Below are positions 889 through 23,061 of a stretch of DNA of 64,000 nucleotides, piece after piece (position 1 is the first letter of the stretch; each line of letters starts with the position of its first letter). The stretch spans positions 1,088,001-1,152,000 of the forward strand of contig CAWIIQ010000001.1 in the NCBI GenBank assembly GCA_963836185.1, in the 5' to 3' direction. Below the pieces are notes generated by a model, which did no database searches, had not been told where the DNA came from, and worked only from the letters and a program-made list of their open reading frames with translations. This DNA is from Candidatus Krumholzibacteriia bacterium. Its GTDB lineage: Bacteria; Krumholzibacteriota; Krumholzibacteriia; Krumholzibacteriales; Krumholzibacteriaceae. A program made the position numbers and the translations under genes.

Positions 889-3157
889 ATGTCTTCGGCT
901 CGTCTCGAACCACGGATTTCCAACAACGCTCTCAGAGTGCTCGAGAGAAGGTATCTGCGCAAGGACGTTAACGGAAATCTGACAGAGACGCCGGAAGAAC
1001 TCTTCCAGCGGGTCGCGGCGAATATCGCCTCGGCCGAGAGGCGTTACGGTGACAACAAGAACCGCCTGGGCTGGGAAGATACGTTCTATAACATGATGGC
1101 CACCCTCGATTTTCTGCCCAATTCGCCGACCCTGATGAACGCCGGCGCCGAGCTCCAGCAGCTCTCCGCCTGCTTCGTCCTTCCGATCGAGGACTCGATG
1201 GAGAGCATCTTCGAGACGATCAAGAACACGGCGCTGATCCACAAGAGCGGAGGAGGCACGGGATTCTCCTTCTCGCGCATCCGCCCGAGGAACGACCGGG
1301 TCAAGACGACCAAGGGCATCTCGAGCGGGCCGATCTCGTTCATGACGGTCTTCGACGCCGCCACCGAAACGGTAAAGCAGGGCGGCACGCGCAGGGGCGC
1401 CAACATGGCGATCCTTCGCGTCGACCATCCCGACATCCTCGATTTCATCACGGCGAAGAAGGACAACAGAAAACTCAACAACTTCAACATCTCGGTCGCC
1501 ATCACCGAGGAATTCATGGAGGCGGTCAAGGCTGACCGCGACTATGAGCTGATCAATCCGCACGGCGGCGATGTCGTCGACAAGATATCAGCGAAGAAGG
1601 TCTACCAGATGATCGTCGAGCTCGCGTGGAAGAACGGCGAGCCGGGGATCGTTTTCATAGACAGGCTCAACGAGGATAATCCGACGCCCAACGCGGGGAT
1701 GATAGAGAGCACGAATCCCTGCGGGGAGCAGCCGCTTCTTCCATACGAGTCGTGCAATCTCGGTTCGATAAACCTGTCGCACATGGTCACGGAAGACGGG
1801 CGACAAGTCGAAGATCGATTTCAACAAGCTCGGCGAGACGGTGCGCAGGGCGACGCGGTTTCTCGACAACGTGATCGACGTGAACCGCTACCCGCTCAGC
1901 CAGATCAAGGATCAGACACTTGCCAACCGCAAGATCGGCCTCGGCGTCATGGGATTCGCCGACGCTCTCGTCAGGATGGAGATCCCCTACGACTCGGAGG
2001 AGGCCCTCGAGGTCGCCGAAGAGATCATGGGATTCATCCAGCGCGAGTCGACCGCGACGAGCCTGGAGCTGGCCGAAGAAAGGGGAGCCTTCCCCAACTT
2101 CAAGGGCAGCAGGTTCGATACTGAGGATGCGCCGAAGCGCCGCAACGCGACGACGACGACGATCGCTCCGACCGGCACGCTGAGCATCATCGCCGGGTGC
2201 TCGAGCGGTGTCGAGCCTCTCTTCGCTGTAGCCTTCATCAGGCATGTCATGGACAACGATGAGCTCGTCGAGGTAAACCCGGTCTTCGAGGAGATCGCCC
2301 GCCGCGAGGGATTCTTCAGCGAAGAGCTGATGAAGAAGATCGCCGAGGAGGGGACCGTTCAGGGGATAGAGGAGATACCCGAGCATTGGCGGCGTATCTT
2401 CGTTACCGCGCATGATATCACGCCCGAGTGGCACATCCGGATCCAGGCAGCCTTCCAGAAATACACCGATAATGCCGTATCCAAGACGGTGAACTTTCCG
2501 AAGTCCGCCACTAAGGAAGACGTCGAATCAGTGTACATCAAGGCGTACGAGATGGGCTGCAAGGGCGTGACAATATACCGTGACGGAAGCCGTCAGGAGC
2601 AGGTCCTCAACATAGGCTCTGTCAACCGCGAGACCGAAGACGGCGAACTCGAGCTGGGCGATGATCTGGGCGGACTGCTCAAGCCGAGGCCGCGTCCCGA
2701 GGTGACGACCGGCAAGACCCACAAGATGACGACGGGCTGCGGAAACCTCTACGTGACGATCAACGAGGACGAGCACGGCCCGTTCGAGGTCTTCACGCAG
2801 ATGGGCAAGGCGGGCGGATGCTCCGCCTCGCAGTCGGAGGCGATCAGCCGGCTGATATCTCTTTCGCTGCGCGCCGGAATCGATCCGAAGCAGATCGTCA
2901 AGCAGCTCCGCGGGATCAGGTGCCCCAACCCGGGATGGGAGAAGGGCGGCATGATCCTCTCGTGCAGCGACGCGATCGCCAGGGCGATCGAGCGGTACTT
3001 CCTCGAGGAGAAGACCCCGGTCGGCCACAAGGTCACCAAGATGTCGGCGGGATACCTCGACAAGGTCGCCGGCTTCTGCCCCGACTGCGGCGGCGTGATG
3101 GAGCACGAGGGAGGCTGCGCGGTCTGCCGCGAATGCGGCTTCTCCAAGTGCGGCTAA
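889..3157 (+). CDS. nrdJ: Class II (vitamin B12-dependent) ribonucleotide reductase, split by one frameshift near 1800
   Basis: [44 protein letters not shown]-terminal TGCG/CPDCG/CRECG domain; ORFs 889-2124 and 1841-3157. Confidence 0.9.
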
Positions 3158-3740: not shown

Positions 3741-3817
3741 TGACAGGAGGAAGGACAGGCGATAAAATATAGAAAATAATGCTCCGGTTGCCATGGGTGG
3801 GGAAAGGAAGTGACGAC

Positions 3818-4789
3818 GTGGGCAATCTAAGGGAAGCTATGCGCCGGGAGCTGCGGCTCCGCAACTACAGTCCGGGCACGATCAGGACATATCTTCAGCA
3901 CATGACAGAATTCACCAGGCACTTCGGCCGAAGTCCGTCCGAACTCGGCAGGGAAGAGATAAACTCCTACCTGCTCCACATGACGGAAGTAAGAAAGGTC
4001 TCCGCCACATACAGGGACCAGGCCATAAGCGCGCTGAAATTCTTCTACGGAAGGGTGCTGAAGAAACAGCTCATCATCGAAGAACTCCCACGTCCGAAGA
4101 AAGAATTCAAACTGCCGTCAGTGCTGAGCACAAAAGAAGTAGCTCGGCTCTTCCAGGCAGTCAGAAACCGGAAGCATCTCACCATCCTGATGCTCCTCTA
4201 TTCCGGTGGTATGAGAGTAAGCGAAGTAGTCAGGCTCAAACCTGAGGACATCGATCCAGAAAGACACCTTATCAGGGTGCGAGGGGGAAAGGGACGGAAG
4301 GACAGGTACACAGTCCTCTCGGATACGGCTCTCGATGTCCTCCGTGATTATTACCTGTCATGGAAGCCGGAATATTTTCTTTTTGAGGGAAACAGGAAAG
4401 GTTCTCATCTGTCGACAAGATCGGTCCAGAACGTCGTTTCAGCGGCCAGAAAGCGTGCCGGGCTGAAGAAGAAGTTCAGCACCCATGTTCTCAGGCACAG
4501 CTTCGCGACGCACCTCCTTGAAAGCGGCACCGATTTAAGGTATATTCAAGAACTACTGGGGCACAAAAGTGCCAGGACGACACAGATCTACACACATGTA
4601 ACACGGAGGGATATCGCACGGATCGTTAGCCCGCTGGACAGGATGATGGAGGGGGAAGCAGCGGCGACAGGACCGATCGGAACATCCGAACGGAAGAAAT
4701 CTCCCACCCACCCCACCCATTTTACTGAACGTCCTCGTCGCAAACGAACCAAAAACCGTCAAAACAACGAACCGGACACACACAAATAA
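3818..4789 (+). CDS. Tyrosine recombinase (N-terminal SAM-like domain plus catalytic domain) heading a cassette array; integron-integrase-like but lacking the IntI insertion
   Basis: LRNYSPGTIRTY; LYSGGMRVSE; GKGRKDR; HVLRHSFATHLLESG; LLGH; TTQIYTHV; GTG start at 3818 after AAGGAAG. Confidence 0.9.
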   Translation: MGNLREAMRRELRLRNYSPGTIRTYLQHMTEFTRHFGRSPSELGREEINSYLLHMTEVRKVSATYRDQAISALKFFYGRVLKKQLIIEELPRPKKEFKLPSVLSTKEVARLFQAVRNRKHLTILMLLYSGGMRVSEVVRLKPEDIDPERHLIRVRGGKGRKDRYTVLSDTALDVLRDYYLSWKPEYFLFEGNRKGSHLSTRSVQNVVSAARKRAGLKKKFSTHVLRHSFATHLLESGTDLRYIQELLGHKSARTTQIYTHVTRRDIARIVSPLDRMMEGEAAATGPIGTSERKKSPTHPTHFTERPRRKRTKNRQNNEPDTHK

Positions 4790-4810
4790 ACTGTTATATG
4801 ATAGCCGAGA
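4743..4810 (+). other. Candidate attI-like primary recombination site (G/TT crossover at 4793)
   Basis: GTTATATGATAGCCGAG (4793-4809) matches the reverse complement of the end of cassette 1 at 16/17 positions; AACGAACC direct repeats at 4743 and 4766. Confidence 0.7.
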
Positions 4811-4816
4811 GAGGCT

Positions 4817-5230
4817 ATGAGAAAGAAATACCGTAAACTTTTCACGATACTATTAGTATCAGCGTTATTGGCTTCTTGTGAAGCCAACGATATTGGAAAG
4901 TGCACACATATCCCTGTCGAAGGAGTCGCAACAATTGTCACAGTCTGAAGAGCGTTCTGAATACCAGGATTGTGGTATGGGGGTTTTATTATACATCGAC
5001 CTGGCTCCCGATTGTCCAATTTACGCTGAAAGATTTCAATACAAAATACTCGACTTCTGACTTTGTACCCCAAAAGATGGGTCGAAGCCGTTGGCTTGAT
5101 AGAAGGATCTCAGCATAGGTGTATTTACTTTGCTAAGGGTGGTCCTTGTCCTAACTATATCGTTTGGGAAGATATAGACGTACAAAGCATTGAAGATTCA
5201 TGTACTGTGTGGGCTGCGGAATCACCATGA
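4817..5230 (+). CDS. Cassette 1: Cys-rich lipoprotein, family A (frameshifted)
   Basis: MRKKYRKLFTILLVSALLASC lipobox; rebuilt CTHIPVEGVATIVTV...RWVEAVGLIEGSQHRC...DSCTVW aligns with 17236 and 20940. Confidence 0.7.
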
Positions 5231-5254
5231 TTGGGTTATGGGAGCTCGGCCATC

Positions 5255-5394
5255 ATATAACAGCAGTGTTCGCGGCTGCAGGCCTTCGGCCTTTCGCTCA
5301 GATGGCCTTTGTCACGGCGGCCGCAGGGCGACTGCCGCGCCAACCGGGCCTGGCGGCCCGGACGGCCACCTCGCGAACACGACCAATGTTATGT
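5255..5394 (+). repeat. attC-like repeat 1 (major type)
   Basis: ATATAAC...GTGTTCGCG...CGCGAACACGACCAAT-GTTATGT. Confidence 0.9.
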
Positions 5395-5420
5395 GACATG
5401 ACATTGAGATAGGAGGGGTA

Positions 5421-6016
5421 ATGAAAAGGCTATCTGCGGTCATATTCTTACTATTGCTGATGACGTCCGCTAGCGTACTTGCTGACTCGGTACAATTTAC
5501 CATACGAGTTCATCGAGACGTTGAGGATATCTCTGCGCTAGAGGTGAAAACCTTTGAGATCATTTCGGGGGGACTATTCCCAGAAACTGAACTAGAAACA
5601 GAGATGAAGGAGAAGATTCGAGCACGGATCGAGTCTACTGGATTAGTCTATGATCCTTCAAAGAAGGACCTCTTTGTTGGTGTTATCTTTGTTGGCTTCT
5701 CCGAGCATGGGAACAAGCTACCTGGATTGGAAGATTGGCCAAGTCAAACCCATGGATCTGTTGATTCAGCTTATGCGCTTCTAACTGCAGAATCTGAGAA
5801 TACAGAAGGGCAAGGTGCATGGAGGTCCATCCAAATCCACATTCTTGCACCACCTATCAGGAAGTTCCGGTTCGGATCTGGACGGGCTCGGTTACATACG
5901 ATGGATTAGAGACCGATACTGATAAACTGGCAAATGTGATGTTGGAACAATTACTTCTTGAATATCCCGTGCCATCTGGAAAGCCAGAGTTGCGAGAAGT
6001 GATATTAAGTGAATAG
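5421..6016 (+). CDS. Cassette 2: secreted hypothetical protein (frameshift near 5870)
   Basis: AGGAGG RBS, signal peptide; ORFs 5421-5909 and 5819-6016. Confidence 0.65.
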
Positions 6017-6033
6017 TGGAGGGGTGTCACGTC

Positions 6034-6173
6034 ACATAACAGAGTGTTCGCGGCTGCAGGCCTTCGGCCTTTCGCATAGATGGCCTTTGTCACGGCGGCC
6101 GCAGAAGCGCCCGCCGCGCCAACCGGGCCTGAGGGCCCGGACGGCCACCTCGCGAACACGACCAATGTTATTC
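6034..6173 (+). repeat. attC-like repeat 2
   Basis: ACATAAC...GTTATTC, near-identical core. Confidence 0.9.
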
Positions 6174-6200
6174 GCCACCTAACCTTGCAAAGGAGATAAT

Positions 6201-6368
6201 GTGGATGTATTGAAAATGTTGCTTCCTTTCGGGATTGCCTTTTTAGTGTTCTTAGCTATAAGGGAAGTAATGTGCTGGTACTTCAGAATTAACAATATGC
6301 TCAATATGCTCAATAGTATTGATACCAGTTTAAAAAGAATGTCGGGAAGGACAGACAGTTCTTCTTAA
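6201..6368 (+). CDS. Cassette 3: 55-aa single-TM protein
   Basis: AAGGAG RBS, GTG start, MDVLKMLLPFGIAFLVFLAIREVMCWYFRINN...; fills the cassette. Confidence 0.65.
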   Translation: MDVLKMLLPFGIAFLVFLAIREVMCWYFRINNMLNMLNSIDTSLKRMSGRTDSSS

Positions 6369-6399
6369 GACAATACAATTGATTTTACGGTTAGGCGGC

Positions 6400-6539
6400 G
6401 TATAACAGTGTGTTCGCGGCTGCAGGCCTTCGGCCTTTCGCTAAGATGGCCTTTGTCACGGCGGCCGCTAGAGCGCCCGCCGCGCCAACCGGGCCTGGCG
6501 GCCCGGACGGCCACCTCGCGAACACGACCAATGTTATCT
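6400..6539 (+). repeat. attC-like repeat 3
   Basis: GTATAAC...GTTATCT. Confidence 0.9.
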
Positions 6540-6617
6540 GAAACCACACCTTATCGTGGTATAATTCAGCGTTGCGTGGATTCTGGCCACAAGACACTGT
6601 GCCCCAAGGATGATGAG

Positions 6618-8555
6618 ATGAAGAGCAAGAACCTCACAAGAGTACTGATCGCCTGCCTATTTATCATGATCTCTAACGAAATATCTGCTCAATGGTATGA
6701 CTTGGGGAATCCTGTGTTCATTGACCCGGGGATGTTTCAGGACACACACATTTCTTACGATGGCAATGGAGGCCTGTTCTTTACGTGGTGCGATTGGAGA
6801 AACGGGGGAGCCCCTTATCAGGCGGATGTCTATGCACAATATGTGAATGCTGACGGAATAGCACAATTCGGACTGTCGGGGATGCCAATCGATACGATCA
6901 GCGGCAATCAGTACAAGGCTAATGTTTCATATGTGGGAGGGGATTGCGCGGTGATTGTATGGTCGGACCTGATGGATGGATATAAATTGCGAGCTCAGCG
7001 CATTAATTCCGAAGGAATGGTATTCTGGGGAGACAGAGGTGTGGATGTATCAGAACAGTCAGGAATGGGAGAAGTCGCATCAGTGATTCCAGATATTAAT
7101 GGAGGAGCCATAATATCCTGGAGAAATTTTTATGTTTGGATTCAACGGCTGGATTCACTGGGCAATCGGATGTGGGGGGAGGACGGAATAAGAATTAACA
7201 ATATTGGGGACACTGTTGGCAGTGCTCCTGCAATTGTGAGTGATGGGGCGGGAGGCGCAATAATCGTATGGTCAGACTATCGCTCTGGGAGCATGACGCA
7301 TGACATATATGCTCAACGTGTTAACTCAAACGGGGATGAGTTATGGACAGACGGGGGATTGCCGATTAACAACAATGAAGGAGCTCAAACTCAACCCTCA
7401 ATAGTGTTTGACGGAAATAACTCCTTTATCAGTTGGTTTAACAATACATGGGACATCGGTGTTCAGAAAATAGATCACGATGGTAATCTCTTATGGAATG
7501 TTAATGGAGTATATATTAGTCCAATAGAGCCCAGACCTAAGTATCGAGCCATGGCTGCCGATAATCATGGAGGTGTGATTGCCGCTTGGGAAGATTTTAG
7601 GAATACGAGTTCAACTGAATCTGATATTTACGCTCAGCGGATTCGCTCAGATGGGGAGATTGCATGGGATATAGATGGTATTGCGATTTACATTGGTGGA
7701 GGGGATCATCAACAGCCAGCAATTTCTACCACATCATCAGGCGATGCTATCATTGTTTGGACTAATTATTATGGAATTTACGCACAACGAGTGGATACCA
7801 GCGGAGCAATATATTGGCCAGAATACGGTGAAAACATTTCAAGAGGGCCAGGGTGCCAACACTGGCCACTTATCCAGAACATCGATGACAAAGAATTATT
7901 CGTTGTGTGGAATAAGAATGAGAATGATGCATGTTATGGAAACGACGATTTATATGTTCAAAAGATTGATCTTGAAGGACACATTGTAGGCACATTTCTA
8001 GATCAGGCCGAATGGTATTGTGTCTCTGATGAAATATGTTTGAAATGGTCGATTGTCTTATCCGCAAATAATCTTGAATTCATTATACTGCGCACATTAA
8101 GCGGAGAGCATAAGTACAGAGAAGTTGGCCGGATTATTGGATTCGAACGTCAATCCGAATTTTGCTATATTGATAGCACATGTAAACTTGGGGAAAAGTA
8201 CATATATCGTGTTATCGCTTCCATGGAAGATGATGAGATGTTGCTTTTTGAAACTACAACAATCCTGATGCCAAATCTAAAGTATGTTCTTCATCAGAAT
8301 TATCCGAATCCGTTCAATCCAATAACCAAAATCTCATACAGTCTGCCAAAACAGTGCATCGTCAGCTTAAAGATATACGATATTATGGGAAAAGAGATTG
8401 TATGCCTTGTTAACAATCAATTGCAGCAAGGTGAACAGGTAATACATTGGGATGGTAAAAACCACTTCGGAGATCTTGTTTCTTCCGGAACATATTTTTG
8501 CAAGCTTTTTGCTGGAAAACAGACAAAAGTAATTAAATTGATATGTCTGAGATGA
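6618..8555 (+). CDS. Cassette 4: secreted repeat protein with C-terminal FlgD-Ig/T9SS-type-A-like sorting domain
   Basis: Signal peptide; repeated DGxGGAIIxWxDxR...DIYAQR; C-terminal LHQNYPNPFNPITKISYSLP...WDGKN...VSSGTYF. Confidence 0.8.
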   Translation: MKSKNLTRVLIACLFIMISNEISAQWYDLGNPVFIDPGMFQDTHISYDGNGGLFFTWCDWRNGGAPYQADVYAQYVNADGIAQFGLSGMPIDTISGNQYKANVSYVGGDCAVIVWSDLMDGYKLRAQRINSEGMVFWGDRGVDVSEQSGMGEVASVIPDINGGAIISWRNFYVWIQRLDSLGNRMWGEDGIRINNIGDTVGSAPAIVSDGAGGAIIVWSDYRSGSMTHDIYAQRVNSNGDELWTDGGLPINNNEGAQTQPSIVFDGNNSFISWFNNTWDIGVQKIDHDGNLLWNVNGVYISPIEPRPKYRAMAADNHGGVIAAWEDFRNTSSTESDIYAQRIRSDGEIAWDIDGIAIYIGGGDHQQPAISTTSSGDAIIVWTNYYGIYAQRVDTSGAIYWPEYGENISRGPGCQHWPLIQNIDDKELFVVWNKNENDACYGNDDLYVQKIDLEGHIVGTFLDQAEWYCVSDEICLKWSIVLSANNLEFIILRTLSGEHKYREVGRIIGFERQSEFCYIDSTCKLGEKYIYRVIASMEDDEMLLFETTTILMPNLKYVLHQNYPNPFNPITKISYSLPKQCIVSLKIYDIMGKEIVCLVNNQLQQGEQVIHWDGKNHFGDLVSSGTYFCKLFAGKQTKVIKLICLR

Positions 8556-8602
8556 TTATATACTCAATTTGAGCACTATACTTATAAGTCAGGTGTGGCT
8601 TC

Positions 8603-8742
8603 AGATAACAGAGTGTTCGCGGCTACAGGCCTTCGGCCCTTCGCTCAGATGGCCTTTGTCACGGCGGCCGCTAGAGCGCCCGCCGCGCCAACCGGGCCTG
8701 GCGGCCCGGACGGCCACCTCGCGAACACGACCAATGTTATCC
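8603..8742 (+). repeat. attC-like repeat 4
   Basis: AGATAAC...GTTATCC. Confidence 0.9.
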
Positions 8743-8777
8743 GACATCTTATTGAAGCTTAAAGAGGTGAAATTGCT

Positions 8778-9409
8778 ATGAAAATGATGAAGCCAATTGT
8801 TGTTCTGATAGTACTGATACTCCTGTTCTCGGTCGCAAAGTATGTCAGAGTTCAAGCATTTCATATTAGAAAGTGAGAGCAAGGTTGAGCTTCCTAATTA
8901 TTTTTATGATGACCTAGAGCCATACGTTACAACAATAGATCGCCAGCATTCTGACAAAGAGGATGATTCGCCTTGCTGAATCTGTTTATCCACCAAGAAG
9001 GAAGATGCTTGAGAAGCATCCAGGTTTGCCAGAAGAAATGGTAGCAGATTCACTGTGGGTGGCTGAAGAGCACGGCGATTTAAAAATACCCTACACACTA
9101 ACTGCGAGTGCAGTTCGGTACTATATTGATCTGATGAAGAGGTACGAAAAGAAGGACGAAACGCTCGATAGTATCCCGAAAAATGCAAAGTTAACATATA
9201 AAGCAGACATGCACGGTCCATCAACTTTCATTATTAATGGTGAATTGTATGAAAATGTTAAGGTTGTAACCCTTGAGTTAAGCTGGTCCACCTATACTAA
9301 TGCTTTGAATGCTGGAGGATTCAGTATTGTCAAGTTTGTGATTTTCGACAGGGAGAAGAATATTCTGGGTGTGTTTGGGGATGGATTCCCTGGAGAATGG
9401 GCGTCATGA
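8778..9409 (+). CDS. Cassette 5: exported hypothetical protein (frameshifted)
   Basis: GAGGTG RBS, hydrophobic N-terminus at 8778; body ORF 8963-9409. Confidence 0.55.
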
Positions 9410-9437
9410 ACATTGGGAATATCCAATAGAAGACGTC

Positions 9438-9576
9438 GGATAACAGAGTGTTCGCGGCTGCAGGCCTTCGGCCTTCGCTCAGATGGCCTTTGTCACGGCG
9501 GCCGCTGGAGCGCCCGCCGCGCCAACCGGGCCTGGCGGCCCGGACGGCCACCTCGCGAACACGACCAATGTTATTC
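9438..9576 (+). repeat. attC-like repeat 5
   Basis: GGATAAC...GTTATTC. Confidence 0.9.
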
Positions 9577-9999
9577 GCCATGTGGCAGATGAATAAATTT
9601 AACTTCGATTTCTTCTTATTTTTTAGGACTCTTCTTTCCCCGCAGTACAGCCCCATCCAGCCTCAGGGTGACTTCCGGAGTCTCTAAAGCCTGATCGATC
9701 CAGTACCTCATATTTTCTCCGATGTTAAGGCCTAGACTCGTGCCGTAACGGGCCTGAGGGTGGCTTGCGGCTGAGACTGAGATCCTCGATCCTGAGGTTT
9801 TAAGGGGCCGAGATTGGTAGGGGAGAGCTCGTAAGGAACTTGCTTTCAACGATCGGGGCAATTCAGCGTACGACTTCGGGTCGCGCTGTCGCATCTTTAT
9901 CAGCCAAGGGTTGGCTGAAAGACTATTGAACCGGAGAGATTAAAGGATTAGATTTATAGGTGAGGGGTGATCTAGTATGAATTCCACACGGCGTATAAC
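9570..9999. other. Cassette 6: ORF-less cassette, copy A (candidate ncRNA/regulatory element)
   Basis: No credible ORF; block-wise nucleotide similarity to 13214-13645. Confidence 0.7.
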
Positions 10000-10106
10000 A
10001 GAGGTGTTCGCGGCTGCGCATGTCACCCGGCCTGCAGAGCACGCCGGGCGCCAATGCTTCGCGTACACCGCCTGCGGCGGCGTCGCGAACACTCACAATG
10101 TTATAC
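9993..10106 (+). repeat. attC-like repeat 6 (divergent type)
   Basis: GTATAACAGAGGTGTTCGCG...CGCGAACACTCACAATGTTATAC; different internal hairpins. Confidence 0.85.
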
Positions 10107-10125
10107 GATAAATGCCCTTATTCCT

Positions 10126-10155
10126 TTGACATATTCAATTCTACATAGATAGAAT
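10126..10155 (+). promoter_or_regulatory. Internal promoter of the kinase cassette
   Basis: TTGACA-18 nt-TAGAAT, ATG 8 nt downstream, no SD sequence. Confidence 0.55.
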
Positions 10156-10163
10156 CTCCATAC

Positions 10164-13062
10164 ATGTTAGGGGAAACAATCTCACATTATGAAATTCTCG
10201 AGAAGCTCGGCGAGGGCGGGATGGGCGTAGTCTACCGCGCCCGTGACACGAAGCTCGACCGCGAGGTGGCTATCAAGCTCCTGCCCCCGCACCTGAGCTC
10301 CGATCCCGAGGCGGTAAAGAGGTTCGTCCATGAGGCGAAGACCGCCTCGGCCCTGAACCACTCCGCTATAGGCGTCATCCACGAGATAGACGAGACGGAT
10401 GACGGCCAGACGTTCATCGCAATGGCCCTCTACGAGGGGGGACTCTCAGGGAGAAGCATCGACAGCGGCAGCATGACATCTAGGCGAAGCAGTAACCATA
10501 GCCTCCCAGATAGCCTCGGGTCTCGACCAGGGCCCACGAGAAGGGGATAGTCCACAGGGACATCAAGCCGCAGAACATACTTCTGACCAGAGACGGCGAG
10601 GCGAAGATAATCGACTTCGGCCTAGCGAAGCTCGCCGGAAGGACGAAGCTGACGAGGGACGGGAGTACGCTCGGCACTGCCGCCTACATGTCCCCCGAGC
10701 AGGCGAGGGGAGAAGAGGTCGATCACCGTTCGGACATCTTCTCTCTCGGGACGATCCTGTACGAGATGCTCGCCGGTGAGCCACCATTCAAGGGGGAGCA
10801 CGAGGCGGCGTTGCTCTACGGGATAGTGCACGAGGAGCATGAAGAGATATCGGAGAAGTGCGGGGGCATAGCACCGGAATTGTGCAATGTGGTCGGAAAG
10901 ACGCTGAAGAAGGAAAAGGAAGCAAGGTATCAGAACGCGGCGGACCTGAAAGCTGAATTGAAGAGGTCGAGCACCGGCAGTGTCGATGAGGGCGGACCGA
11001 GGGATACGAAGGACGCTGGAAGAGGTAAAGGGTTCTGGATAGGCATTGCGGCGGTCACCGTGACACTCACAACTGCCGTACTTCTCGTAATGACCGGACG
11101 TGAGCCGGCGCCGCTTACCGCTTCGGAGATGACTCTCGCTGTGGTTGATTTTAATGACCTAGCAACAGAACCGGATCCTATAAAATCCAAGACGATTACA
11201 GAGCTGCTAAATACCTCCCTGGGAGATTTCTGTCCGATACGCGTTCAGAGCCCGGAACGAGTAAGGGAATGTCGAAGACAGCTTTTCGGTTCAACTGAAG
11301 CGCAGATAGAGGAAGGGCAGGAACTGGAGATCGCGCGCAGGAGCGAAGCGACCTATTTGCTTACTGGCAGCATCAGTGTCGTTGGCAACGACGGTTTTAT
11401 CTCTTGGAGGCTCATAGATGTACTAAGTGGGACTATCATCAAGGCCGGAACAGTCGAACCAGGTGAGATGATGGCAGTAGTTGATAAGATCGTGGAGGTC
11501 GTATTGCCGGAGATCGCAGAAGCTTCGGGAGTTGAGCAGACTGCAGAGCAGGTTTCCGTGGCACAATCTCGACATCTTCACAGCAGGCGTTTGAGCATTA
11601 CGTTAGGGGTAAGATAAATCATGACAGCGATCGTCCAGTCGAAGCACTCGATGAATACACGAAAGCTGTCGGATTAGATTCCAGTTTTGCTCTTGCCTGG
11701 TTTGCTATGTCTAGACTCTACTATGGTGCCATGATGATTAGGTATGATCCGGCACTTTATAATAAATACAATGAGCTTGCCTTAAGGTATGAATCCAGGA
11801 TGGGCACCAAGGAGAGGATGCAGCTTCGTGCTATTAATCTTGGAGGAGTCAAAACGATAGAAAAACTCAAGGAAATCCTCGAGCTCTGGCCTGATGACCG
11901 CGAGACGCTGCAGATGCTCGTCCTCAGAACCCACTATAATTGGATGCAAAAAGAATGTATCGAGTACTCTCGAATCGGATTGACGCTATACCCGGAAGAC
12001 CAGGTTTTCGGAGGAAGTATCTATATCACATCTCTTAATAATTTGGGTCTAAGCCAAGAAGCGATGAAGGCGTCCAGAGAATTTATCAGAAAATATCCTG
12101 ACGATTCGGCAGCTTGGCGTTCTCTTGCCGAGACATTTGTGGTCATGGGGCAACCGGACAGTGCCGAGGCGATCTGCAGAATAATTTTGGAGAAATATCC
12201 TGAAGGCAGCCAGAATGCAGAGGCAAGGCGGATGATAGCACGATGTGCATATCTTGCAGGCGATCTAGATGAATCGATTTCAAGGTATGATAGATTATTG
12301 TCAGACGCGAACCTGGATGAATCTACTCGTCAGGAGATTCTTTCTAACTATACTCACATTATAGATCTTACTTATGTATATCGAGAAGCTGGCCGCTACT
12401 ACGACGCCTTGCGGACCTTGAATGAGGCAAGACCGTACTTCGGCAACCGACCTGATCGCTGGGAATTACAAATGGGCTATCTGCTAGTAGATATTGGCAG
12501 GAACAAGAATGCGTTGAAACTCGCTGAAGAGATGCTTGCATCAGATAATATGCCAATGCAGAGGTATGCCAGACGATTCATGGGCAAGGCGCAAGTTAAT
12601 AATGGTGATATCCAAGGTGCTCAGGAAACTGTATCGATACTGGATGGACTTGGCATAGTCAGGGGACCTATCTACAAGTACCATTCATTTTTCACTCAGG
12701 CATATATTGCATTGGCAAGGAATGATGCTTCAGTGTCTCTAAAGCATCTTGATGATGCGGCCCAGATAGTGGGCTTCTCATACTGCATGTTCGGAATCGA
12801 GCTGAAGACATTGCAGGCGGAGGCGAACAGACTGGCAGGGGACCTGGAGGCGGCAGCCTCGATCCATGAAGAACTGCTGAGGATTCATGGCGGACATGCA
12901 TTGTCACACTTCGAACTCGGTAAACTGTATGAGGCAATGAGAAGAACGGACGAGGCAAAACTGCACTATAATAGATTCCTAGAGATGTGGAATAACGCTG
13001 ATGATGGATTACCTCAACCTGCACTCGCGAGGGAGAGACTGACAGCGCTTAAAGGTGTTTAA
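10164..13062 (+). CDS. Cassette 7: Hanks-type Ser/Thr kinase-TM-TPR protein (several frameshifts)
   Basis: [38 protein letters not shown]; TM segment; TPR-like helices. Confidence 0.85.
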
Positions 13063-13081
13063 ATAGAGCAGGGCTTTCATC

Positions 13082-13220
13082 GCATAACAGTGTGTTCGCG
13101 GCTACAGGCCTTCGGCCCTTCGCTCAGATGGCCTTTGTCACGGCAGCCGCAGGGCGACTGCCGCGCCAACCGGGCCTTGAGGCCCGGACGGCCACCTCGC
13201 GAACACGACCAATGTTATCC
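13082..13220 (+). repeat. attC-like repeat 7
   Basis: GCATAAC...GTTATCC. Confidence 0.9.
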
Positions 13221-13645
13221 GCTATGTGGCAGCTGATTGAATTTATCTTCGATCTTTTCTTTTTATTGGGACCCTTCTTCCCGCCCATCCCAACCATTAC
13301 CAGCCGGAGGTCGACTTCCGAGAGTCTCTAGAGCTAGTTCTGCAAGGTGACGAGTCCAACCCCTGTAAGAATAATGCCTCTATAGATGATCCGGCCTGAG
13401 GGTGGCTTGCGAGGCGCGACTGAGATCCTCGGGTCAAGAGGCTTTAAGGGCCGAAATAGGGGTAGGGGAGCGATCGTCAGGGACTTGCTATCATCGGTCT
13501 GAGGCAGGTTCATCTCTCGACTTCGGGAGGCGCAGTCGCAGTTCTATCAACGGGTCAACGCCGAAAGACTATTGAAAGTTCGAGATTAACGGTATAGATT
13601 TAGAGGTGAGGGGTGCCTATATATGAATTCCACACAGCGGATAAC
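13214..13645. other. Cassette 8: ORF-less cassette, copy B
   Basis: Paralog of 9570-9999; no credible ORF. Confidence 0.7.
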
Positions 13646-13767
13646 AGCAGTGTTCGCGGCTACGGGCCTTGAGGCCCTCGCTCAGATGGCCTTTACCGGC
13701 CTTTGGCGCGCCGGCCAACCGGGCCTGAGGCCCGACGACCAACTCGTTAACATGACCACTGTTATGG
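13639..13767 (+). repeat. attC-like repeat 8 (degenerate)
   Basis: GGATAAC...CTCGTTAACATGACCACTGTTATGG; right arm eroded. Confidence 0.75.
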
Positions 13768-14291
13768 AGGGACGTTTTAGAAAATGTAACATACGAATCA
13801 TTCTGGTTGTTCTCGTCTTAACTTCAGCTCTTATATCCTGTGGAGAGGATAGCTGTGAGTGCCCTACACCTAATCCTATTGAATACACCAGCGTTGTGTT
13901 CTACTACAAAGATCATCCATATTGCTATTCAAGTACTGCTGGATTAGAGGTAGAGCTTTATGTCGGTGATGAACTCATAGGGTATTGGCATTATGGCTCT
14001 AATCCAGCAGATCCAAATCTAGATTATCCTAATTCGCAACCTTTTCCGGTTGAGCTCGGAAGTGCCTTGAACCTTGAATTCAGGTATTGGGATAAATCAG
14101 GTCATGAGATGAGAGACACAGCAAATCTCATCATGGATGATGAAGATTGCACTTACGTCAGTTTCTTTGCCGACATAGAAAATCCCTGCCTGGGTGCTGA
14201 GTTATGTGATAGTTGTATTGTTTTTGAGATCGATGAAAACATGAAGTGTGAGGGTGCTGATTCAATCTATGTCGCTGTAGTGACTAATTGA
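13764..14291 (+). CDS. Cassette 9: Cys-rich lipoprotein
   Basis: IILVVLVLTSALISC lipobox; ATG lies within the GTTATG box. Confidence 0.65.
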   Translation: MEGRFRKCNIRIILVVLVLTSALISCGEDSCECPTPNPIEYTSVVFYYKDHPYCYSSTAGLEVELYVGDELIGYWHYGSNPADPNLDYPNSQPFPVELGSALNLEFRYWDKSGHEMRDTANLIMDDEDCTYVSFFADIENPCLGAELCDSCIVFEIDENMKCEGADSIYVAVVTN

Positions 14292-14304
14292 TGGAGACAG
14301 CGGC

Positions 14305-14445
14305 ATATAACAGTGTGTTCGCGGCTACGGGCCTTGCGGCCCTTCGCTCAGATGGCCTTTGTCACGGCGGCCGCAGAAGCGCCCGCCGCGCCAACCGGGC
14401 CTGGCGGCCCGGACGGCCACCTCGCGAACACGACCAATGTTATCC
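14305..14445 (+). repeat. attC-like repeat 9
   Basis: ATATAAC...GTTATCC. Confidence 0.9.
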
Positions 14446-14461
14446 GCAAGCGTATTATGAT

Positions 14462-14857
14462 ATGAACAAGTTCCCAGCAATATTTTTTTTGTCACTCCTT
14501 CTGGCTTCCTGCCGAGATCCTTTCGCGCATGAATGGGAAAACTTATATCAGCTCAGCGCAGATCAGATTATTCTACCCGATACTGCTCAAATATTTCAAC
14601 CGATGCAGGTCAAAGTGCAGGTTACTTTAGATACATCTAATCATAATTACAAAGACCAATATATCGAAACAACACCAGATGGCTATCTGATAGTGCTGAT
14701 TGGTGTAATAGAAGATACGAGATTTCCAGATAATGACCCGGATCCCAGAACAGAATGGCATTCTTTTAACCTTATCCCATTTAAGAAAGGAGAAGTAATC
14801 ATTGAGGGGAAACGAGTCAATTCAGAGAATCTTATTGATTCAGTGTATGTTCAGTAG
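14462..14857 (+). CDS. Cassette 10: lipoprotein, family B
   Basis: LLLASC lipobox; DQIILPDT, EWHSF motifs shared with cassettes 12 and 13. Confidence 0.75.
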   Translation: MNKFPAIFFLSLLLASCRDPFAHEWENLYQLSADQIILPDTAQIFQPMQVKVQVTLDTSNHNYKDQYIETTPDGYLIVLIGVIEDTRFPDNDPDPRTEWHSFNLIPFKKGEVIIEGKRVNSENLIDSVYVQ

Positions 14858-14870
14858 TGGGCACGCCTGC

Positions 14871-15010
14871 GCATAACAGAGTGTTCGCGGCTACGGCCTT
14901 CGGCCTTTCGCTCAGATGGCCTTTGTCACGGCGGCCGCTGGAGCGCCCGCCGCGCCAACCGGACTTGGCGGCCCCGGACGGCCACCTCGAAAACACGACC
15001 AACGTTATAC
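14871..15010 (+). repeat. attC-like repeat 10
   Basis: GCATAAC...GTTATAC. Confidence 0.9.
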
Positions 15011-15039
15011 GAAAGGCCGGGAAGCGATAAAAAAGAACC

Positions 15040-15075
15040 TTGACAGATATGCATATATGATGCATACTGATGCAT
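15040..15075 (+). promoter_or_regulatory. TA promoter with three ATGCAT palindromes
   Basis: TTGACA(15040)-17 nt-CATACT(15063); ATGCAT at 15049, 15060, 15070. Confidence 0.6.
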
Positions 15076-15271
15076 ATGAGAACTACACTGAATATTGACG
15101 ATGATCTGATTCGCAAGGCAGCGAAGATGACAGGGATCAGCGAGAAGACTTCCCTGGTACGCCTCGGGCTTGAAGCATTGATCGCTCTTGAGAGCGCGAG
15201 AAGGCTAGCAGCTCTTGGCGGCACAGAGAAAGATCTTGGCCCTGATTCCTCGCAAACGAACGAGTTCGTGA
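15076..15271 (+). CDS. vapB: Cassette 11: VapB-type antitoxin (stop codon bypassed by a probable 1-nt indel)
   Basis: MRTTLNIDDDLIRKAAKMTGISEKTSLVRLGLEALIALESARRLAALGG. Confidence 0.8.
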
Positions 15272-15273
15272 GT

Positions 15274-15630
15274 ATGATCCTGGCTGATACATCTGTATGG
15301 ATCGATCATCTTCGCAATGGAAACAAGCGGATGGCTCTTTTTCTGAACGAAGGTGTCGTTTTGTGTCATCCTTTCATACTCGGGGAATTGGCCTGTGGGA
15401 ACCTCAAAAACAGAGCTAAAATACTCGATATGCTTGCTTCCCTTCCGACAATGCCAGTTGCAGAGCACAGTGAAGTGCTTGATTTCATTTCCCGATACAA
15501 ATTCCAAGGGAAGGGTATAGGGTGGATCGATGCCCATCTGTTGGCATCAACATTTCTGGCGAAAAGCCGAATCTGGACTCTCGACAAATCTTTACTAAAG
15601 ATAGCAAAAGACCTGAAGGTCTCAATATAG
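15274..15630 (+). CDS. vapC: Cassette 11: VapC PIN-domain toxin
   Basis: MILADTSVWIDHLR, HPFILGELACG, GIGWIDAHLL, WTLDK. Confidence 0.88.
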   Translation: MILADTSVWIDHLRNGNKRMALFLNEGVVLCHPFILGELACGNLKNRAKILDMLASLPTMPVAEHSEVLDFISRYKFQGKGIGWIDAHLLASTFLAKSRIWTLDKSLLKIAKDLKVSI

Positions 15631-15662
15631 GGCAATCAAAAGGTTTAGTAGCCGGCCACTTC

Positions 15663-15803
15663 GTATAACAGAGTGTTCGCGGCTGCGGGCCTTGCGGCCC
15701 TTCGCTCAGATGGCCTTTGTCACGGCGGCCGCAGGAGCACCCGCCGCGCCAACCGGGCCTGGCGGCCCGGACGGCCACCTCGCGAACACGACCAATGTTA
15801 TCC
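15663..15803 (+). repeat. attC-like repeat 11
   Basis: GTATAAC...GTTATCC. Confidence 0.9.
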
Positions 15804-15820
15804 GAAAGCGCGGGATATGT

Positions 15821-16202
15821 ATGAATAAAAAAATCGCATTATCGATCCCATTACTTCTTGTAGTTGCATGTAATCTATTCAAGCCACCTGAAAAGATACA
15901 AACATGGGCTGATGTCGAACAGATTGTTGTTCCTGATACTGTTGACTATTTCGAAGCTTTCGAGATCAGCGCTGAAATTTCAATGGACCATACATGTAAG
16001 TATGTAGGTCCTGTGCTGGAAGAAACTTCTGAGGGCTGCTCCATTACCATTATCGTTGAATCTGTGGAAGTGAGCTTTCATGAAAAGGATATTTCTGAGT
16101 GGCATACCTTTACTCTGAGACCTCTCGAATTGGGATCTTACATCATCAGGGTGAAAAGTAAGAATGTGGAAGATTCTTGTTGATTCAACTTACGTTCGTT
16201 AG
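15821..16202 (+). CDS. Cassette 12: lipoprotein, family B (3' frameshift)
   Basis: LLLVVAC lipobox; EQIVVPDT, EWHTF; shifted tail LVDSTYVR. Confidence 0.72.
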
Positions 16203-16212
16203 ATGCGCCATC

Positions 16213-16353
16213 GGATAACAGTGTGTTCGCGGCTACAGGCCTTGCGGCCTTTCGCTCAGATGGCCTTTGTCACGGCGGCCGCAGGAGCGCCCGCCGCGCC
16301 AACCGGGCCTGGGGGCCCGGACGGCCACCTCGCGAACACGACCAATGTTATGC
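16213..16353 (+). repeat. attC-like repeat 12
   Basis: GGATAAC...GTTATGC. Confidence 0.9.
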
Positions 16354-16369
16354 GAAGGCGAGGGGAACA

Positions 16370-16759
16370 ATGAAATTAGCGGTTGGAATAATTGCAATTA
16401 TCGTTATTTGCTCTTCCTGCGAAGATCCACCAGTAAAAGTATGTGACCGACCAGTAATGTTGGAAGTAGAACAGTTGATGGCTCCGGATTCTTGCAGGTT
16501 AGGTGAGCAGGCACAATTACAAGTCGAAGTAATTCTTAACGGTTCAAGTTATAGTTATTTCGGCCCCGACATTAACGACACAGATTCGGGTTGTAGAATA
16601 AGGATTATGGGAGAAAAAGATGAATGTGCACTTAACACTCCTTGCATTTGCTACGAGTGGCATTCGTTTGTTATTTCCCCCTCACAAACGGGAATATACA
16701 TAATAGAGATAATTAATTCTCAAGCTGATGATTTAGCGGATACAATAACAGTGTATTAG
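16370..16759 (+). CDS. Cassette 13: lipoprotein, family B
   Basis: GAGGGG RBS; ICSSC lipobox; EQLMAPDS, EWHSF. Confidence 0.75.
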   Translation: MKLAVGIIAIIVICSSCEDPPVKVCDRPVMLEVEQLMAPDSCRLGEQAQLQVEVILNGSSYSYFGPDINDTDSGCRIRIMGEKDECALNTPCICYEWHSFVISPSQTGIYIIEIINSQADDLADTITVY

Positions 16760-16769
16760 CTGTGCCATC

Positions 16770-16908
16770 GGATAACAGAGTGTTCGCGGCTGCAGGCCTT
16801 CGGCCTTTCGCTCAGATGGCCTTTGTCACGACAGCCGCAGGGCGACTGCCGCGCTAACCGGGCCTGGCGGCCCGGACGGCCACCTCGCGAACACGACCAA
16901 TGTTATGT
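16770..16908 (+). repeat. attC-like repeat 13
   Basis: GGATAAC...GTTATGT. Confidence 0.9.
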
Positions 16909-16935
16909 GCAATGCTGTGCATTAATTTAAAGGGG

Positions 16936-17100
16936 ATGAAGTTGAAGAAACTATCTCTGATCATCGGAATTCTCGCATTAGCCGTTGCAATAATCATCTT
17001 CATATATGCTTCTGGTGCTAGGCGAATTTATAGCGGCCTCTTATTTATATTGATAGCTATCATCCAATTCACTTTTGCTCTTCGAAAAGGTGATAAATGA
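16936..17100 (+). CDS. Cassette 14: 54-aa two-TM protein
   Basis: Two hydrophobic segments; fills the cassette. Confidence 0.65.
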   Translation: MKLKKLSLIIGILALAVAIIIFIYASGARRIYSGLLFILIAIIQFTFALRKGDK

Positions 17101-17116
17101 TCAATAAGGGCACTGC

Positions 17117-17189
17117 ACATAACAGAGTGTTCGCGGCTGCGGGCCTTGCGGCCCGGACGGCCATCTCGCGAACACGACCAACGTTATGC
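17117..17189 (+). repeat. attC-like repeat 14 (73 bp, internally deleted)
   Basis: Both ends intact; central ~65 nt missing. Confidence 0.85.
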
Positions 17190-17235
17190 GAAAAGCCGCA
17201 GACGTTAAAACCTACCCCTGGGAGGAGATGATGTG

Positions 17236-17692
17236 ATGTTGAAATCAGGAATGTTCATCATTGCCGCTGTTTTTTTTATTCTCGCTCCTTATTTCTTGTG
17301 AGGATGAAGAAGGCATCATTTGTGGGGGAGAGTGCCTTTATCATGAGATACCAGGCACAGCATCTATTATTTCTGTTACTGATATTGATGGATCTACCTA
17401 TTGTGGAGATCCTGTCGAGGTGATTTACAACTTTACTCCAGATGATCCAAGCGATATTGATCCAGACTATTTGACGATTTGGCCACTCGATAATATTTAC
17501 TACAAGATAGGTCAAAACAATCCGCCACGAAGATGGGTTGAAACGCATGGACTTCTGGCAGGAACAGACCATCCATGTACAAGATTTAGGATTTACAAGG
17601 GATCTTGTGTGCCTGTTGGATACAATTTTGATGGCATAGATGATTACAGTGTCTCTGATTCATGTGATGTATGGGAGCAAGAGATACCATAA
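17236..17692 (+). CDS. Cassette 15: Cys-rich lipoprotein, family A (frameshift in poly-T run)
   Basis: SLLISC lipobox; GTASIISV, FTPDDPS, PPRRWV, DSCDVWE. Confidence 0.75.
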
Positions 17693-17716
17693 GTAAACTT
17701 GATTACTGCGACCACC

Positions 17717-17847
17717 GCATAACAGAGGCATTTGCGTACTCGCCTGGCTTCGCCAGAACTAGGCTGTCACGGCCGTTGCAATTTGAGTGCATGATGATAG
17801 ATAAATAGGGGATTGCGGCTGCGCCGCGAATGCTCACAATGTTATAC
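17717..17847 (+). repeat. attC-like repeat 15 (divergent type)
   Basis: GCATAACAGAGGCATTTGCG...CGCGAATGCTCACAATGTTATAC; compensated stem. Confidence 0.8.
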
Positions 17848-17875
17848 GGCATGCAGTTCATGGCAGGGGAATAAA

Positions 17876-18418
17876 TTGATCCATATAGTATTTGATCTCG
17901 AAGCTACCTGCTGGGAACAGGGCACAACGCCGAGTCGAATGGAAATTATTGAAATTGGGGCCACAAGGCTGCACCCTGATACATACGAAATCGATAGTGT
18001 GTTCTCTACCTTTGTGCGACCTGTCGAGGAACCTGAGCTAAGCGACTTCTGCAAGAACCTAACATCCATCCAACAAACTGACGTCGATCTTGCGCCTGTT
18101 TTTCCCGAGGCGATGGATATGTTCTTTGCCTGGATTGATGCTAGTGAAGTTACCTTTTATTCCTGGGGCTACTATGATATCAAGCAGATCCGAATGGATT
18201 ACCAGCGTCATGGAAATTCTGAGCCGGCGGCATTCAGTAGCCACGTTAATTTGAAGAAGCTATTTTCTGAGATCTATGGCAGGAAGCCTTGTGGAATGCG
18301 GAAGGCTCTAAATATACTTGGGTTGGGGCATGAAGGGACGCATCATAGGGGTGTGGATGATGCAAAGAACATTTCCAGGATCGCTAAAGTAATTCTTCCG
18401 GAATATTATGGCTCCTGA
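17876..18418 (+). CDS. Cassette 16: DEDDh 3'-5' exonuclease (ERI-1/KapD-like)
   Basis: VFDLEATCW, EIIEIGA, WGYYD, HHRGVDDA. Confidence 0.85.
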   Translation: MIHIVFDLEATCWEQGTTPSRMEIIEIGATRLHPDTYEIDSVFSTFVRPVEEPELSDFCKNLTSIQQTDVDLAPVFPEAMDMFFAWIDASEVTFYSWGYYDIKQIRMDYQRHGNSEPAAFSSHVNLKKLFSEIYGRKPCGMRKALNILGLGHEGTHHRGVDDAKNISRIAKVILPEYYGS

Positions 18419-18465
18419 AGACCTGAGTATTGGGGAACTGGACTTTGAATAGGTGGCTGCACGCC

Positions 18466-18525
18466 GGATAACAGTGTGTTCGCGGCTGCAGGCTCAGGCG
18501 GCCACCTCGCGAGCATAAGCAATTG
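18466..18525 (+). repeat. attC-like repeat 16 (terminal, truncated, GTT box lost)
   Basis: GGATAACAGTGTGTTCGCGGCTGCAGGC...GGCCACCTCGCGAGCAT. Confidence 0.7.
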
Positions 18526-18639: not shown

Positions 18640-20859
<2,220 letters not shown>

Positions 20860-20939
20860 AAGGAAAGATTAAGGTATCGATTAGTTTAATAGATGCTCAT
20901 GAGGTCAGGAAAATCCTAAATCTCTTTCAGGAGAGGGGT

Positions 20940-21362
20940 ATGAAAGAATTCTATGTAATTGTCTTTTGTGGCTTAATCCTGCCATTTATACCTTCCTGTG
21001 GTTGTGATTCCATGCAGGTCGAAGGAACAGCCAAGATTCTTTCTGTTACAGTGATAGATACCCTGACAGAATGTGGTGGTCTGGCTGAAGTGCGTTTTGA
21101 TTTTATTCCAGATGATCCGTCGATGACTCAGGAAACCAGATTGAGCATGTACCAGACGACAGATGTAAAGTGGAGAGTGCTGTATTACGAGTATCCCCCG
21201 AAGAAATGGTTGGATTTAGTCGGTGTAACTGAGGGATCTGAGCAAAGATGCAGTTTTGAGTGCTATTGGGGTGGAGGTTGTGGAGGATGGAACTGGGATT
21301 TCCTCGATGTCTCTGAGGAGTCAGCGATCGATTCATGTGAGGTATGGGAGGGAGAGGAGTAG
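20940..21362 (+). CDS. Cys-rich lipoprotein, family A, outside the repeat array
   Basis: EGTAKILSV, FIPDDPS, PPKKWL, DSCEVWE. Confidence 0.75.
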   Translation: MKEFYVIVFCGLILPFIPSCGCDSMQVEGTAKILSVTVIDTLTECGGLAEVRFDFIPDDPSMTQETRLSMYQTTDVKWRVLYYEYPPKKWLDLVGVTEGSEQRCSFECYWGGGCGGWNWDFLDVSEESAIDSCEVWEGEE

Positions 21363-21365
21363 GGC

Positions 21366-21782
21366 TTGTTTAAAATCGTAGTAGTTTTCATCTTATTCGT
21401 TACTCTTTTTCCCGGATGTTCTGAGGAGAGTGTAGCTCCTGAACCAGGGGGCGCTATTGACGATCCTTGCAGAGGGAACAATCCTCCTGCAATTGAAGCT
21501 CTGCCTGACACATTCGTAGCACTCGGTGATACGATCTGGCTGTACGCCGTCGGGCACGATCCTGATCATGACGAGATTCATTTCCTCAGCAGCTGCAACA
21601 ATATAACATGGGCACAATTGCAGTCTGGAGATCTGCCGATATTTGGAGTAAACGCTAAAACAGGAGTGTTCAGATTTGTGCCGCGATCTTACGATGATCC
21701 CTACAGGGTATTCGAGGTCTGGGCCGCGGATTCCTGTGACGCTATTAATTCCTCGGAATTCACTATTCAAGTTACGCAATAG
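21366..21782 (+). CDS. Lipoprotein with Ig-like domain
   Basis: LFPGC lipobox; NNPPAI...DPDHD. Confidence 0.65.
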   Translation: MFKIVVVFILFVTLFPGCSEESVAPEPGGAIDDPCRGNNPPAIEALPDTFVALGDTIWLYAVGHDPDHDEIHFLSSCNNITWAQLQSGDLPIFGVNAKTGVFRFVPRSYDDPYRVFEVWAADSCDAINSSEFTIQVTQ

Positions 21783-21861
21783 AATATATAGACTCACAAA
21801 ATCTGTAGGACAATGCGGAAATACCACTTGTCAGAATCTGTGATGACGGTATTTTCAAGGT

Positions 21862-22476: not shown

Positions 22477-22530
22477 ACACCAGTCATATTCAATGCTTAT
22501 AATGCTGTCCGTTATACTAGCGGAGGTTAT

Positions 22531-23013: not shown

Positions 23014-23061
23014 AGTCGAACCGGACGATTATCCATGACCAGGAGTAGAGAGAAGAGAGTG

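Follow-up and report, generated by a model that had tools for sequence, protein, structure and literature searches.

The window analysed here is a 64,000-nucleotide stretch of the genome of a Candidatus Krumholzibacteriia bacterium, and the element in question is an integron-like array headed by a tyrosine recombinase (YR) without the insertion found in IntI integrases. The YR open reading frame (ORF; 3779–4789, plus strand) comprises 336 amino acids counted from its first ATG, the likely starts being ATG 3839 or an in-frame GTG at 3818 that is preceded by a purine-rich stretch. An attI-like site, CACAAAT-AAACT-G↓TTATAT (4781–4799, plus strand), overlaps the stop codon and has its crossover past G4793; 16 cassettes of 281–3114 bp follow behind the YR on its strand. 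In 15 cases the cassette sites are complete ATAAC...GTTAT hairpins of 69–137 bp, and the sixteenth (18468–18525) lacks its right end, which bears out an earlier, sequence-only reading of 16 same-strand cassettes with structured repeats. These repeats are no chance product; the bottom-strand fold has z = −8.5, −6.7 and −3.2 in the three sites tested, and full-length matches to the repeat profile are confined to this array in the 3.5-Mb genome. An Rfam scan of 3000–27000 (E ≤ 1) gave zero matches.

The YR contains the Pfam domains PF13495 and PF00589, and in alignment its residues R126, K151, H216, R219, H242 and Y251 (numbered from ATG 3839) correspond to R146, K171, H277, R280, H303 and Y312 of IntI1. 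All six catalytic residues expected of an IntI (R-K-H-R-H-Y) are present, as the sequence-only reading had held. The segment from GKG to HxxR measures 66 residues, compared with 107 in 15 of 15 IntI proteins and 72–85 in five Xer-type rows; 41 residues are absent, and the ALERKYP stretch of IntI1 falls within the missing part. Absence of the IntI insertion had been recognized from the letters alone. The accompanying remark that the segment is as short as in XerC/D was right about its shortness, yet it is shorter than in the Xer proteins of this genome and equal in length to that of IS91-linked YRs. Comparison with VchIntIA (2a3v) gives two aligned blocks (query 21–190 and 208–289 to 9–179 and 239–320) with a gap between them, and the positions of IntI1 K219, Y220, W229 and P242 have no counterpart. 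Eight IntI1 residues are described in the accessible part of one report (PMC3053210) as contacting extrahelical bases; in the YR, four of these are deleted, two changed and two kept.

Profile scores place the protein below the cut-off of the IntI profile TIGR02249 (230.9 against 265 bits) and of the XerC and XerD profiles (200 of 335 and 196 of 330 bits), and above that of NF040815 recomb_XerA_Arch (‘site-specific tyrosine recombinase/integron integrase’; 244.8 against 220 bits). Its C-terminus carries an IntI-like SPLD motif, past which the tail is variable. The ratio of non-synonymous to synonymous substitution (dN/dS) is 0.11–0.15 in four ortholog pairs (five were taken, L017 being dropped since ungapped pairing lost the frame), which points to purifying selection. 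No IS91 transposase lies directly downstream of the YR stop codon; the attI-like site and cassette 1 stand there instead.

The cassettes are real recombination units and have been reordered among relatives. For each cassette, the 16 bases starting at the G of GTT were compared with the 16 at its 3′ end that close with AAC. At the variable positions 6–16, 128 of 176 positions pair in the circular form (permutation mean 65.7, standard deviation 6.8; reached in 0 of 100,000 permutations), whereas 64 of 165 pair in the site as it stands in the array; the corresponding counts in relatives are 90 and 59 of 143. Because cassette ends pair in the circular and not in the array form, the crossover is placed at G↓TT. 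Cassette 1 shares this pairing, its left edge being the attI-like CACAAAT-AAACT-GTTAT over the YR stop codon. The locus thus has two features by which an integron platform is recognized, an attI beside the recombinase gene with G↓TT and a row of same-strand cassettes with end pairing in the circle.

Orthologs of the YR occur in 15 of 42 genomes of the family. In all five genus relatives carrying the gene, the 17-base attI core lies at the gene or directly after it, and the first cassette differs from that of the window, being a homologue of cassette 6 in three of them and of cassette 10 in one; homologues of window cassettes 6, 10 and 11 occupy other array positions. Complete sites are present at seven of the 15 family loci and a site cut by the contig end at two; four loci end at attI or inside the first cassette, one ends before attI, and at the remaining locus (G015) no site lies within 1.7 kb. 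On contigs of related strains (~91% identical over the gene), compared through small word shares, one sequence departs from the window at 4801, just beyond the crossover, and another has cassette 11 behind a different site copy with other neighbours. A join of 15802 back to 15010 was considered as an excised circle and rejected; the contig has other flanks and is read as showing other neighbours.

Two site geometries in one genome

The sites of the window share a build, here called type B, in which TAAC is followed by 3–4 bases, an unbulged 8–9-bp stem and 7 bases before GTT; because 3–4 bases stand on one side and 7 on the other, the arm cut on the bottom strand is 3–4 bases longer. Type A is the classical build, with an extrahelical base and balanced arms, whereas the L stem of type B has no bulge. 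Thus, among the properties by which classical attC sites are defined, inverted AAC/GTT cores and a stable bottom-strand hairpin are found in the window sites, and an extrahelical L-box base and balanced arms are not. Strict fold-based site finders missed known sites. One scoring rule per geometry was written, A (classical) and B (window), from the sites of the window and of loci L001 and L031. The 14 window sites that passed the scan scored 7.5–9 of 9 as type B and at most 4.5 of 9 as type A, and site 8 passed neither rule. A surrogate covariance model built on 14 classical sites, with a poor consensus structure, scored the window sites at 15–27 bits by way of an inner hairpin common to both site types and almost overlooked classical arrays kept out of its training.

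Profile search of the genome located a true intI (418 bits; C1:2072034–2072864; L001:14031–15041) about 1 Mb from the array. It is co-oriented with an array of its own, in whose sites the arms are balanced and the L box has one base more. The sequence-only reading had named a true intI elsewhere in the genome, handling these repeats while the YR was inactive on them, as one finding that would overturn it: a true intI does exist, but it heads an array of its own with differently built sites. As assembled, intI is frameshifted near its start. We rejected this as proof of a dead gene: the ribonucleotide reductase gene of the window is also frameshifted relative to a 95–97% identical ortholog, and since the assembly carries indel errors the frameshift is not a trustworthy sign of a pseudogene. 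Two separate Xer-type genes are present as well. An inner hairpin GTCAC...GCGCCA is common to type B and classical sites in the family (window sites; L001:12459–12555, L031, L035 and L045), which suggests a common source for the variable part of both.

Geometry tracks the enzyme. Across the family (kin included), 27 B and 0 A sites lie behind 16 insertion-less loci and 0 B and 18 A sites behind 19 intI loci, and a genome-wide scan confined B to this array and A to intI plus two isolated places; neither type was found in 90.8 kb of background, the other sequence of the window. The same rules were then applied to 160 loci from metagenome and viral contigs (32–54% identity; the best 80 of 597 and the best 80 of 358) that had played no part in defining them and were classed by segment length and an adjacent IS91 transposase. 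Among 62 insertion-less loci without IS91, the downstream side had 28 B and 6 A sites and the upstream side, read on the opposite strand, 24 B and 4 A; at least two B sites occurred at 13 of the 62 (8 co-oriented, 5 divergent) and two weak A sites at one. The 38 IntI loci had 98 A and 2 B sites upstream, with A arrays at 18, one of which also had the 2 B. No array of either type was found at the 39 short, IS91-coupled loci, and the remaining 21 loci included one with four weak A sites. The 33 array loci form 31 clusters at 90%. From these tallies, the rules recover classical integrons unaided and give the other geometry to the insertion-less group.

Several of these loci have features of their own. 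At L111, L147, L169, L187 and L192, an insertion-less enzyme has its B array upstream on the opposite strand, which is the classical integron layout. L163, an insertion-less locus, has three B sites and one A, and its mixed scores, like those of the IntI locus L238, possibly reflect cassette exchange between systems or scan noise. Two Bacteroidota plasmids (L076:8800–16804 and L078:8000–10000) carry an insertion-less relative followed by small co-oriented genes, with the gene of a group II intron on the opposite strand; the scan gave three B-like sites in L076 and none in L078. A Chryseobacterium plasmid has B-type sites behind a YR relative.

Relationships of the enzyme and known systems

In a tree of 40 rows (LG+G4, insertion columns removed), IntI proteins including IntI1 and IntI3 form one clade (100/100) that excludes the YR. 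Its sister group (96/93) unites the insertion-less enzymes and the IS91-linked YRs, and the Xer and RIT rows are split from the two (98/98). In a FastTree of 134 rows, IntI and the B-array enzymes meet in an unresolved fork; the latter fall on at least two deep branches, and the IS91-linked enzymes are nested among them. Close kin of the YR (L072–L075, L077 and at least 39 of the 160 loci) stand in an operon with an IS91-type transposase and have no arrays.

The proposal that a non-IntI enzyme heads a cassette platform is thus supported, with an IntI-profile score below the cut-off and a position outside the IntI clade; its assignment to an Xer-like clade is not, given the 98/98 grouping with IntI against Xer. 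Although the YR exceeds the NF040815 cut-off, the tree separates it from the Xer proteins of the genome, and with two separate Xer-type genes present the label is no proof of an Xer role. Nor is a parallel invention of the integron supported: because the enzymes group together against Xer and the systems share SPLD, G↓TT, attI and bottom-strand hairpins, common descent with IntI is the better explanation. The placement is compatible with an ancestral insertion-less state. On a broader and tentative view, to which we give somewhat less than even weight, integrons would comprise two deep, mutually insulated types, of which the insertion-less one would be older because B arrays occur on at least two deep branches around IntI and in both gene orientations; IntI would have arisen by gaining the I2 region and bulged attC sites, IS91-linked recombinases would be an offshoot, and this genome would run both types.

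Sedentary chromosomal integrons of the ‘inverted integrase’ type (Treponema), as presented in the available sections of Cury et al. 2016 (PMC4889954), resemble the window system in the recombinase beside attI, the co-oriented cassettes, G↓TT, the bottom-strand hairpin sites, and the presence of toxin–antitoxin and ORF-less cassettes. The window system differs from them in that the enzyme lacks the IntI insertion and falls outside the IntI clade, and in that the sites have no extrahelical L-stem base and arms offset by 3–4 bases; in addition, outer complementarity extends over ~16 bp, whereas in type A it decays past position 9. The same source lists 21 YRs without the intI_Cterm domain near attC sites, on replicons without IntI, four of them between IntI and Xer. 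Smyshlyaev et al. (10.1101/542381, PMC8138268) describe an ‘integron-like subgroup’ of YRs, including IS91- and IS3-linked ones, to which the YR belongs as an insertion-less sister of IntI. The accessible portions of that work link insertion-less members to insertion sequences and not to cassette arrays; its IS91-linked members nest among enzymes of the window type, but the window YR has no IS91 transposase and heads an array.

Proposed mechanism and alternatives

The array lies behind an intact, insertion-less YR with an attI-like site, and we think it probable that this YR inserts and excises the cassettes; it is predicted to do so through the folded bottom strand of its own site type. Confidence is higher still on one component, namely that the adjacent YR and not the distant IntI serves the array. 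In 34 of 36 sites the bottom strand gives the more stable fold. Wobble pairs point to the same strand. At outer-stem position 11, 14 of the 16 cassettes lack a pair on the top strand; in 12 of these the bases are A/C, which on the bottom strand is T-G. Directly inside AAC/GTT, 27 of 27 B sites have a pair (A-T or A/C) when bottom-strand T-G wobbles are counted, compared with 4 of 18 A sites. The arm register is +3 or +4 in 35 of 36 sites within a free range of −2 to +6, and L stems differ in sequence yet stay paired in 129 of 144 cells; as the sites had been selected on pairing, the argument is partly circular and the stem covariation counts as weak support.

In the proposed mechanism, the bottom strand would fold into an R stem, an asymmetric loop (6 × 2–3 bases) and the unbulged 8–9-bp L stem, and the enzyme would cut once, at AA↓C. 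The swapped strands would need two paired bases and not one. What stops the second exchange would be the mismatched, over-long spacer and not an extrahelical base gripped by I2, so that the offset loop would substitute for the brake that bulge and I2 provide. The junction would be resolved by replication, as happens when XerC integrates CTX phage. Confined to the excised circle, the outer stem of 16 bp would tip the balance towards insertion and away from excision. As a joint proposal, drawn from fold models and from analogy, the sequence of fold, single cut, two-base pairing, blocked second exchange and replicative resolution seems to us rather better than an even prospect. The analogy is with the integration of CTX DNA at dif, where, according to the parts available of two accounts (PMC4246890, PMC4792948), XerC, a YR without I2, integrates a folded single strand without extrahelical bases in one exchange set by homology beside the cut, the second exchange is halted by missing homology on the other side, and replication resolves the product. 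CTX, however, borrows the host XerC/XerD and integrates irreversibly, whereas the window system has one dedicated enzyme, an attI and many reordered cassettes.

Several points weigh against this interpretation. The loop and stem are predicted folds, and some attC sites stripped of all extrahelical bases were still recombined efficiently by IntI1 (PMC5027507, in the sections accessible). The family tally of A and B sites counts kin that are not independent, many of the intI contigs stop shortly past the gene, and, because the rules were written from window and L001/L031 sites, the tally holds partly by construction. Outside the family, 49 of the 62 insertion-less loci without IS91 have no B array (15 of the 62 have less than 3 kb on both sides), and L238 is an IntI locus with two B-scoring sites beside two A. 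A classical intI is present in the same genome; both near-complete relatives checked, G009 and G077, also have an IntI or IntI-like gene, so that no closed genome with a B array and no intI has been shown.

The array could instead be an attC cluster served in trans by the classical IntI ~1 Mb away, with the adjacent YR a bystander or otherwise employed. Such an enzyme is available, both genes occur in most relatives with long contigs, the inner hairpin is common to both site families, and IntI1 tolerates the loss of extrahelical bases at some sites (PMC5027507, as far as accessible); Cury et al. moreover judged YRs near attC without the IntI domain not to be IntI, each of these having fewer than three attC sites (PMC4889954, available text). 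We nevertheless consider it improbable. The attI core overlaps or follows the YR in relatives although the cassettes change, the site types are unmixed between the two arrays of the genome and track the enzyme at distant loci, and the IS91-coupled kin have no arrays; in G004 (94% complete), the YR gene and two B sites are found with no IntI match above the cut-off. We see equally little prospect for an ordinary two-step exchange on double-stranded sites, in which the hairpins would play no part or have some other function, transcription control for example. The left repeat end, AAC-N5-GTT, does form a regular double-stranded core, and the YR is without the region that fits IntI for single-stranded DNA, but the crossover lies at the right end, where a double-stranded spacer would have 9 bases against 5 in attI and would not be homologous, the wobble pairs favour the bottom strand, and the L stems vary while keeping pairing and register, an argument that is partly circular.

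Slightly less probable again is a platform that is not self-sufficient, in which a partner (a host Xer, a repair factor or IntI) would have to help the YR by blocking or resolving the second exchange. Endonuclease III aids CTX integration (PMC4246890, accessible part) and close kin of the YR are paired with IS91 transposases; against this, the stretch from the YR to the array at this locus contains no gene for a partner, and arrays occur in very different hosts, gene contexts and orientations.

If the adjacent YR does serve the array, this bacterium likely runs a second, overlooked gene-capture system beside a classical integron, because an enzyme without a supposedly essential segment is combined with hairpin sites built unlike those of the classical one. 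The system is predicted to work like an integron, yet by its sequence would lie outside IntI and the classical attC definition. In the open-access literature we found no description of arrays run by insertion-less enzymes; subscription papers, or the supplements of Cury 2016 and Smyshlyaev 2021, may list such arrays. What is new here is that both systems occur in a single genome, that the second site type can be scored by a measurable rule, and that site and enzyme match out of sample. As surveys requiring the IntI domain would skip these enzymes, gene capture may be wider than counted. The I2 region has been described as necessary for cassette capture and its origin, for want of intermediates, as a chicken-and-egg problem (PMC4792948, PMC7790495, accessible sections); given a natural platform that has neither I2 nor bulged sites, one enzyme and two substrates would suffice to test that question. 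The two systems also lend themselves to a direct test of cross-specificity and may yield an orthogonal single-strand recombinase of use in engineering.

Cassette contents and flanking genes

All cassettes are on the plus strand. Lipoprotein-like genes recur: in cassette 1 (4794–5388, site 5257–5392; frame broken as assembled, a paralogue of cassette 15), cassette 9 (13762–14439, site 14307–14443; 175-residue ORF), cassette 10 (14440–15004, site 14873–15008; a paralogue of 12 and 13, with its homologue first in the array of G020), cassette 12 (15798–16347, site 16215–16351), cassette 13 (16348–16902, site 16772–16906) and cassette 15 (17184–17841, with a divergent site at 17719–17845). ORFs of 162 and 148 residues without a Pfam match occupy cassettes 2 (5389–6167, site 6036–6171) and 5 (8737–9570, site 9440–9574); shorter ones of about 55 residues and of 54 hydrophobic residues occupy cassettes 3 (6168–6533, site 6402–6537) and 14 (16903–17183, with a short, 69-bp site at 17119–17187). 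Cassette 4 (6534–8736, site 8605–8740) encodes a 645-residue repeat protein with a Por_Secre_tail sorting domain and many chromosomal paralogues. Cassette 11 (15005–15797, site 15665–15801) is a VapBC toxin–antitoxin pair also present in the arrays of G018 and G077, and cassette 16 (17842–18525) encodes a 3′–5′ exonuclease (PF00929) ahead of the decayed site.

Cassette 6 (9571–10100, with a shorter site variant at 9995–10104) has no long ORF, and its homologues are the first cassettes of G021, G019 and G023; cassette 8 (13215–13761, site 13641–13765, L stem mismatched) is a second, diverged copy. The ORF-poor stretch of ~420 bases (9571–9995 and 13215–13641) stands first in the array in three relatives (L012, L013 and L014). 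Cassette 7 (10101–13214, site 13084–13218) carries a Ser/Thr kinase–TPR gene, in three frames as assembled, with TTGACA-N18-TAGAAT at its 5′ end. Homology to a chromosomal kinase paralogue (G000:C3:211559, minus strand) starts exactly at the crossover (window 10101–10300) and amounts to 87% over 203 bases, with the promoter-like stretch included and no site found on C3, possibly the trace of a cassette made from, or returned to, a chromosomal gene.

Matches to the cassette-promoter (Pc) consensus, by consensus alone, lie at 4518–4546 and 4773–4802. Several frameshifts (889–3157, 4818–5240 and 10164–13062), which affect the conserved ribonucleotide reductase gene among others, point to indel errors of the assembly. 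In the stretch past the decayed sixteenth site, at 18655–24000, a catalase-peroxidase-like gene is followed by AT-rich lipoprotein-like genes without sites, possibly old cassettes; these include a cassette 15 paralogue and another gene whose homologue follows the G018 array.

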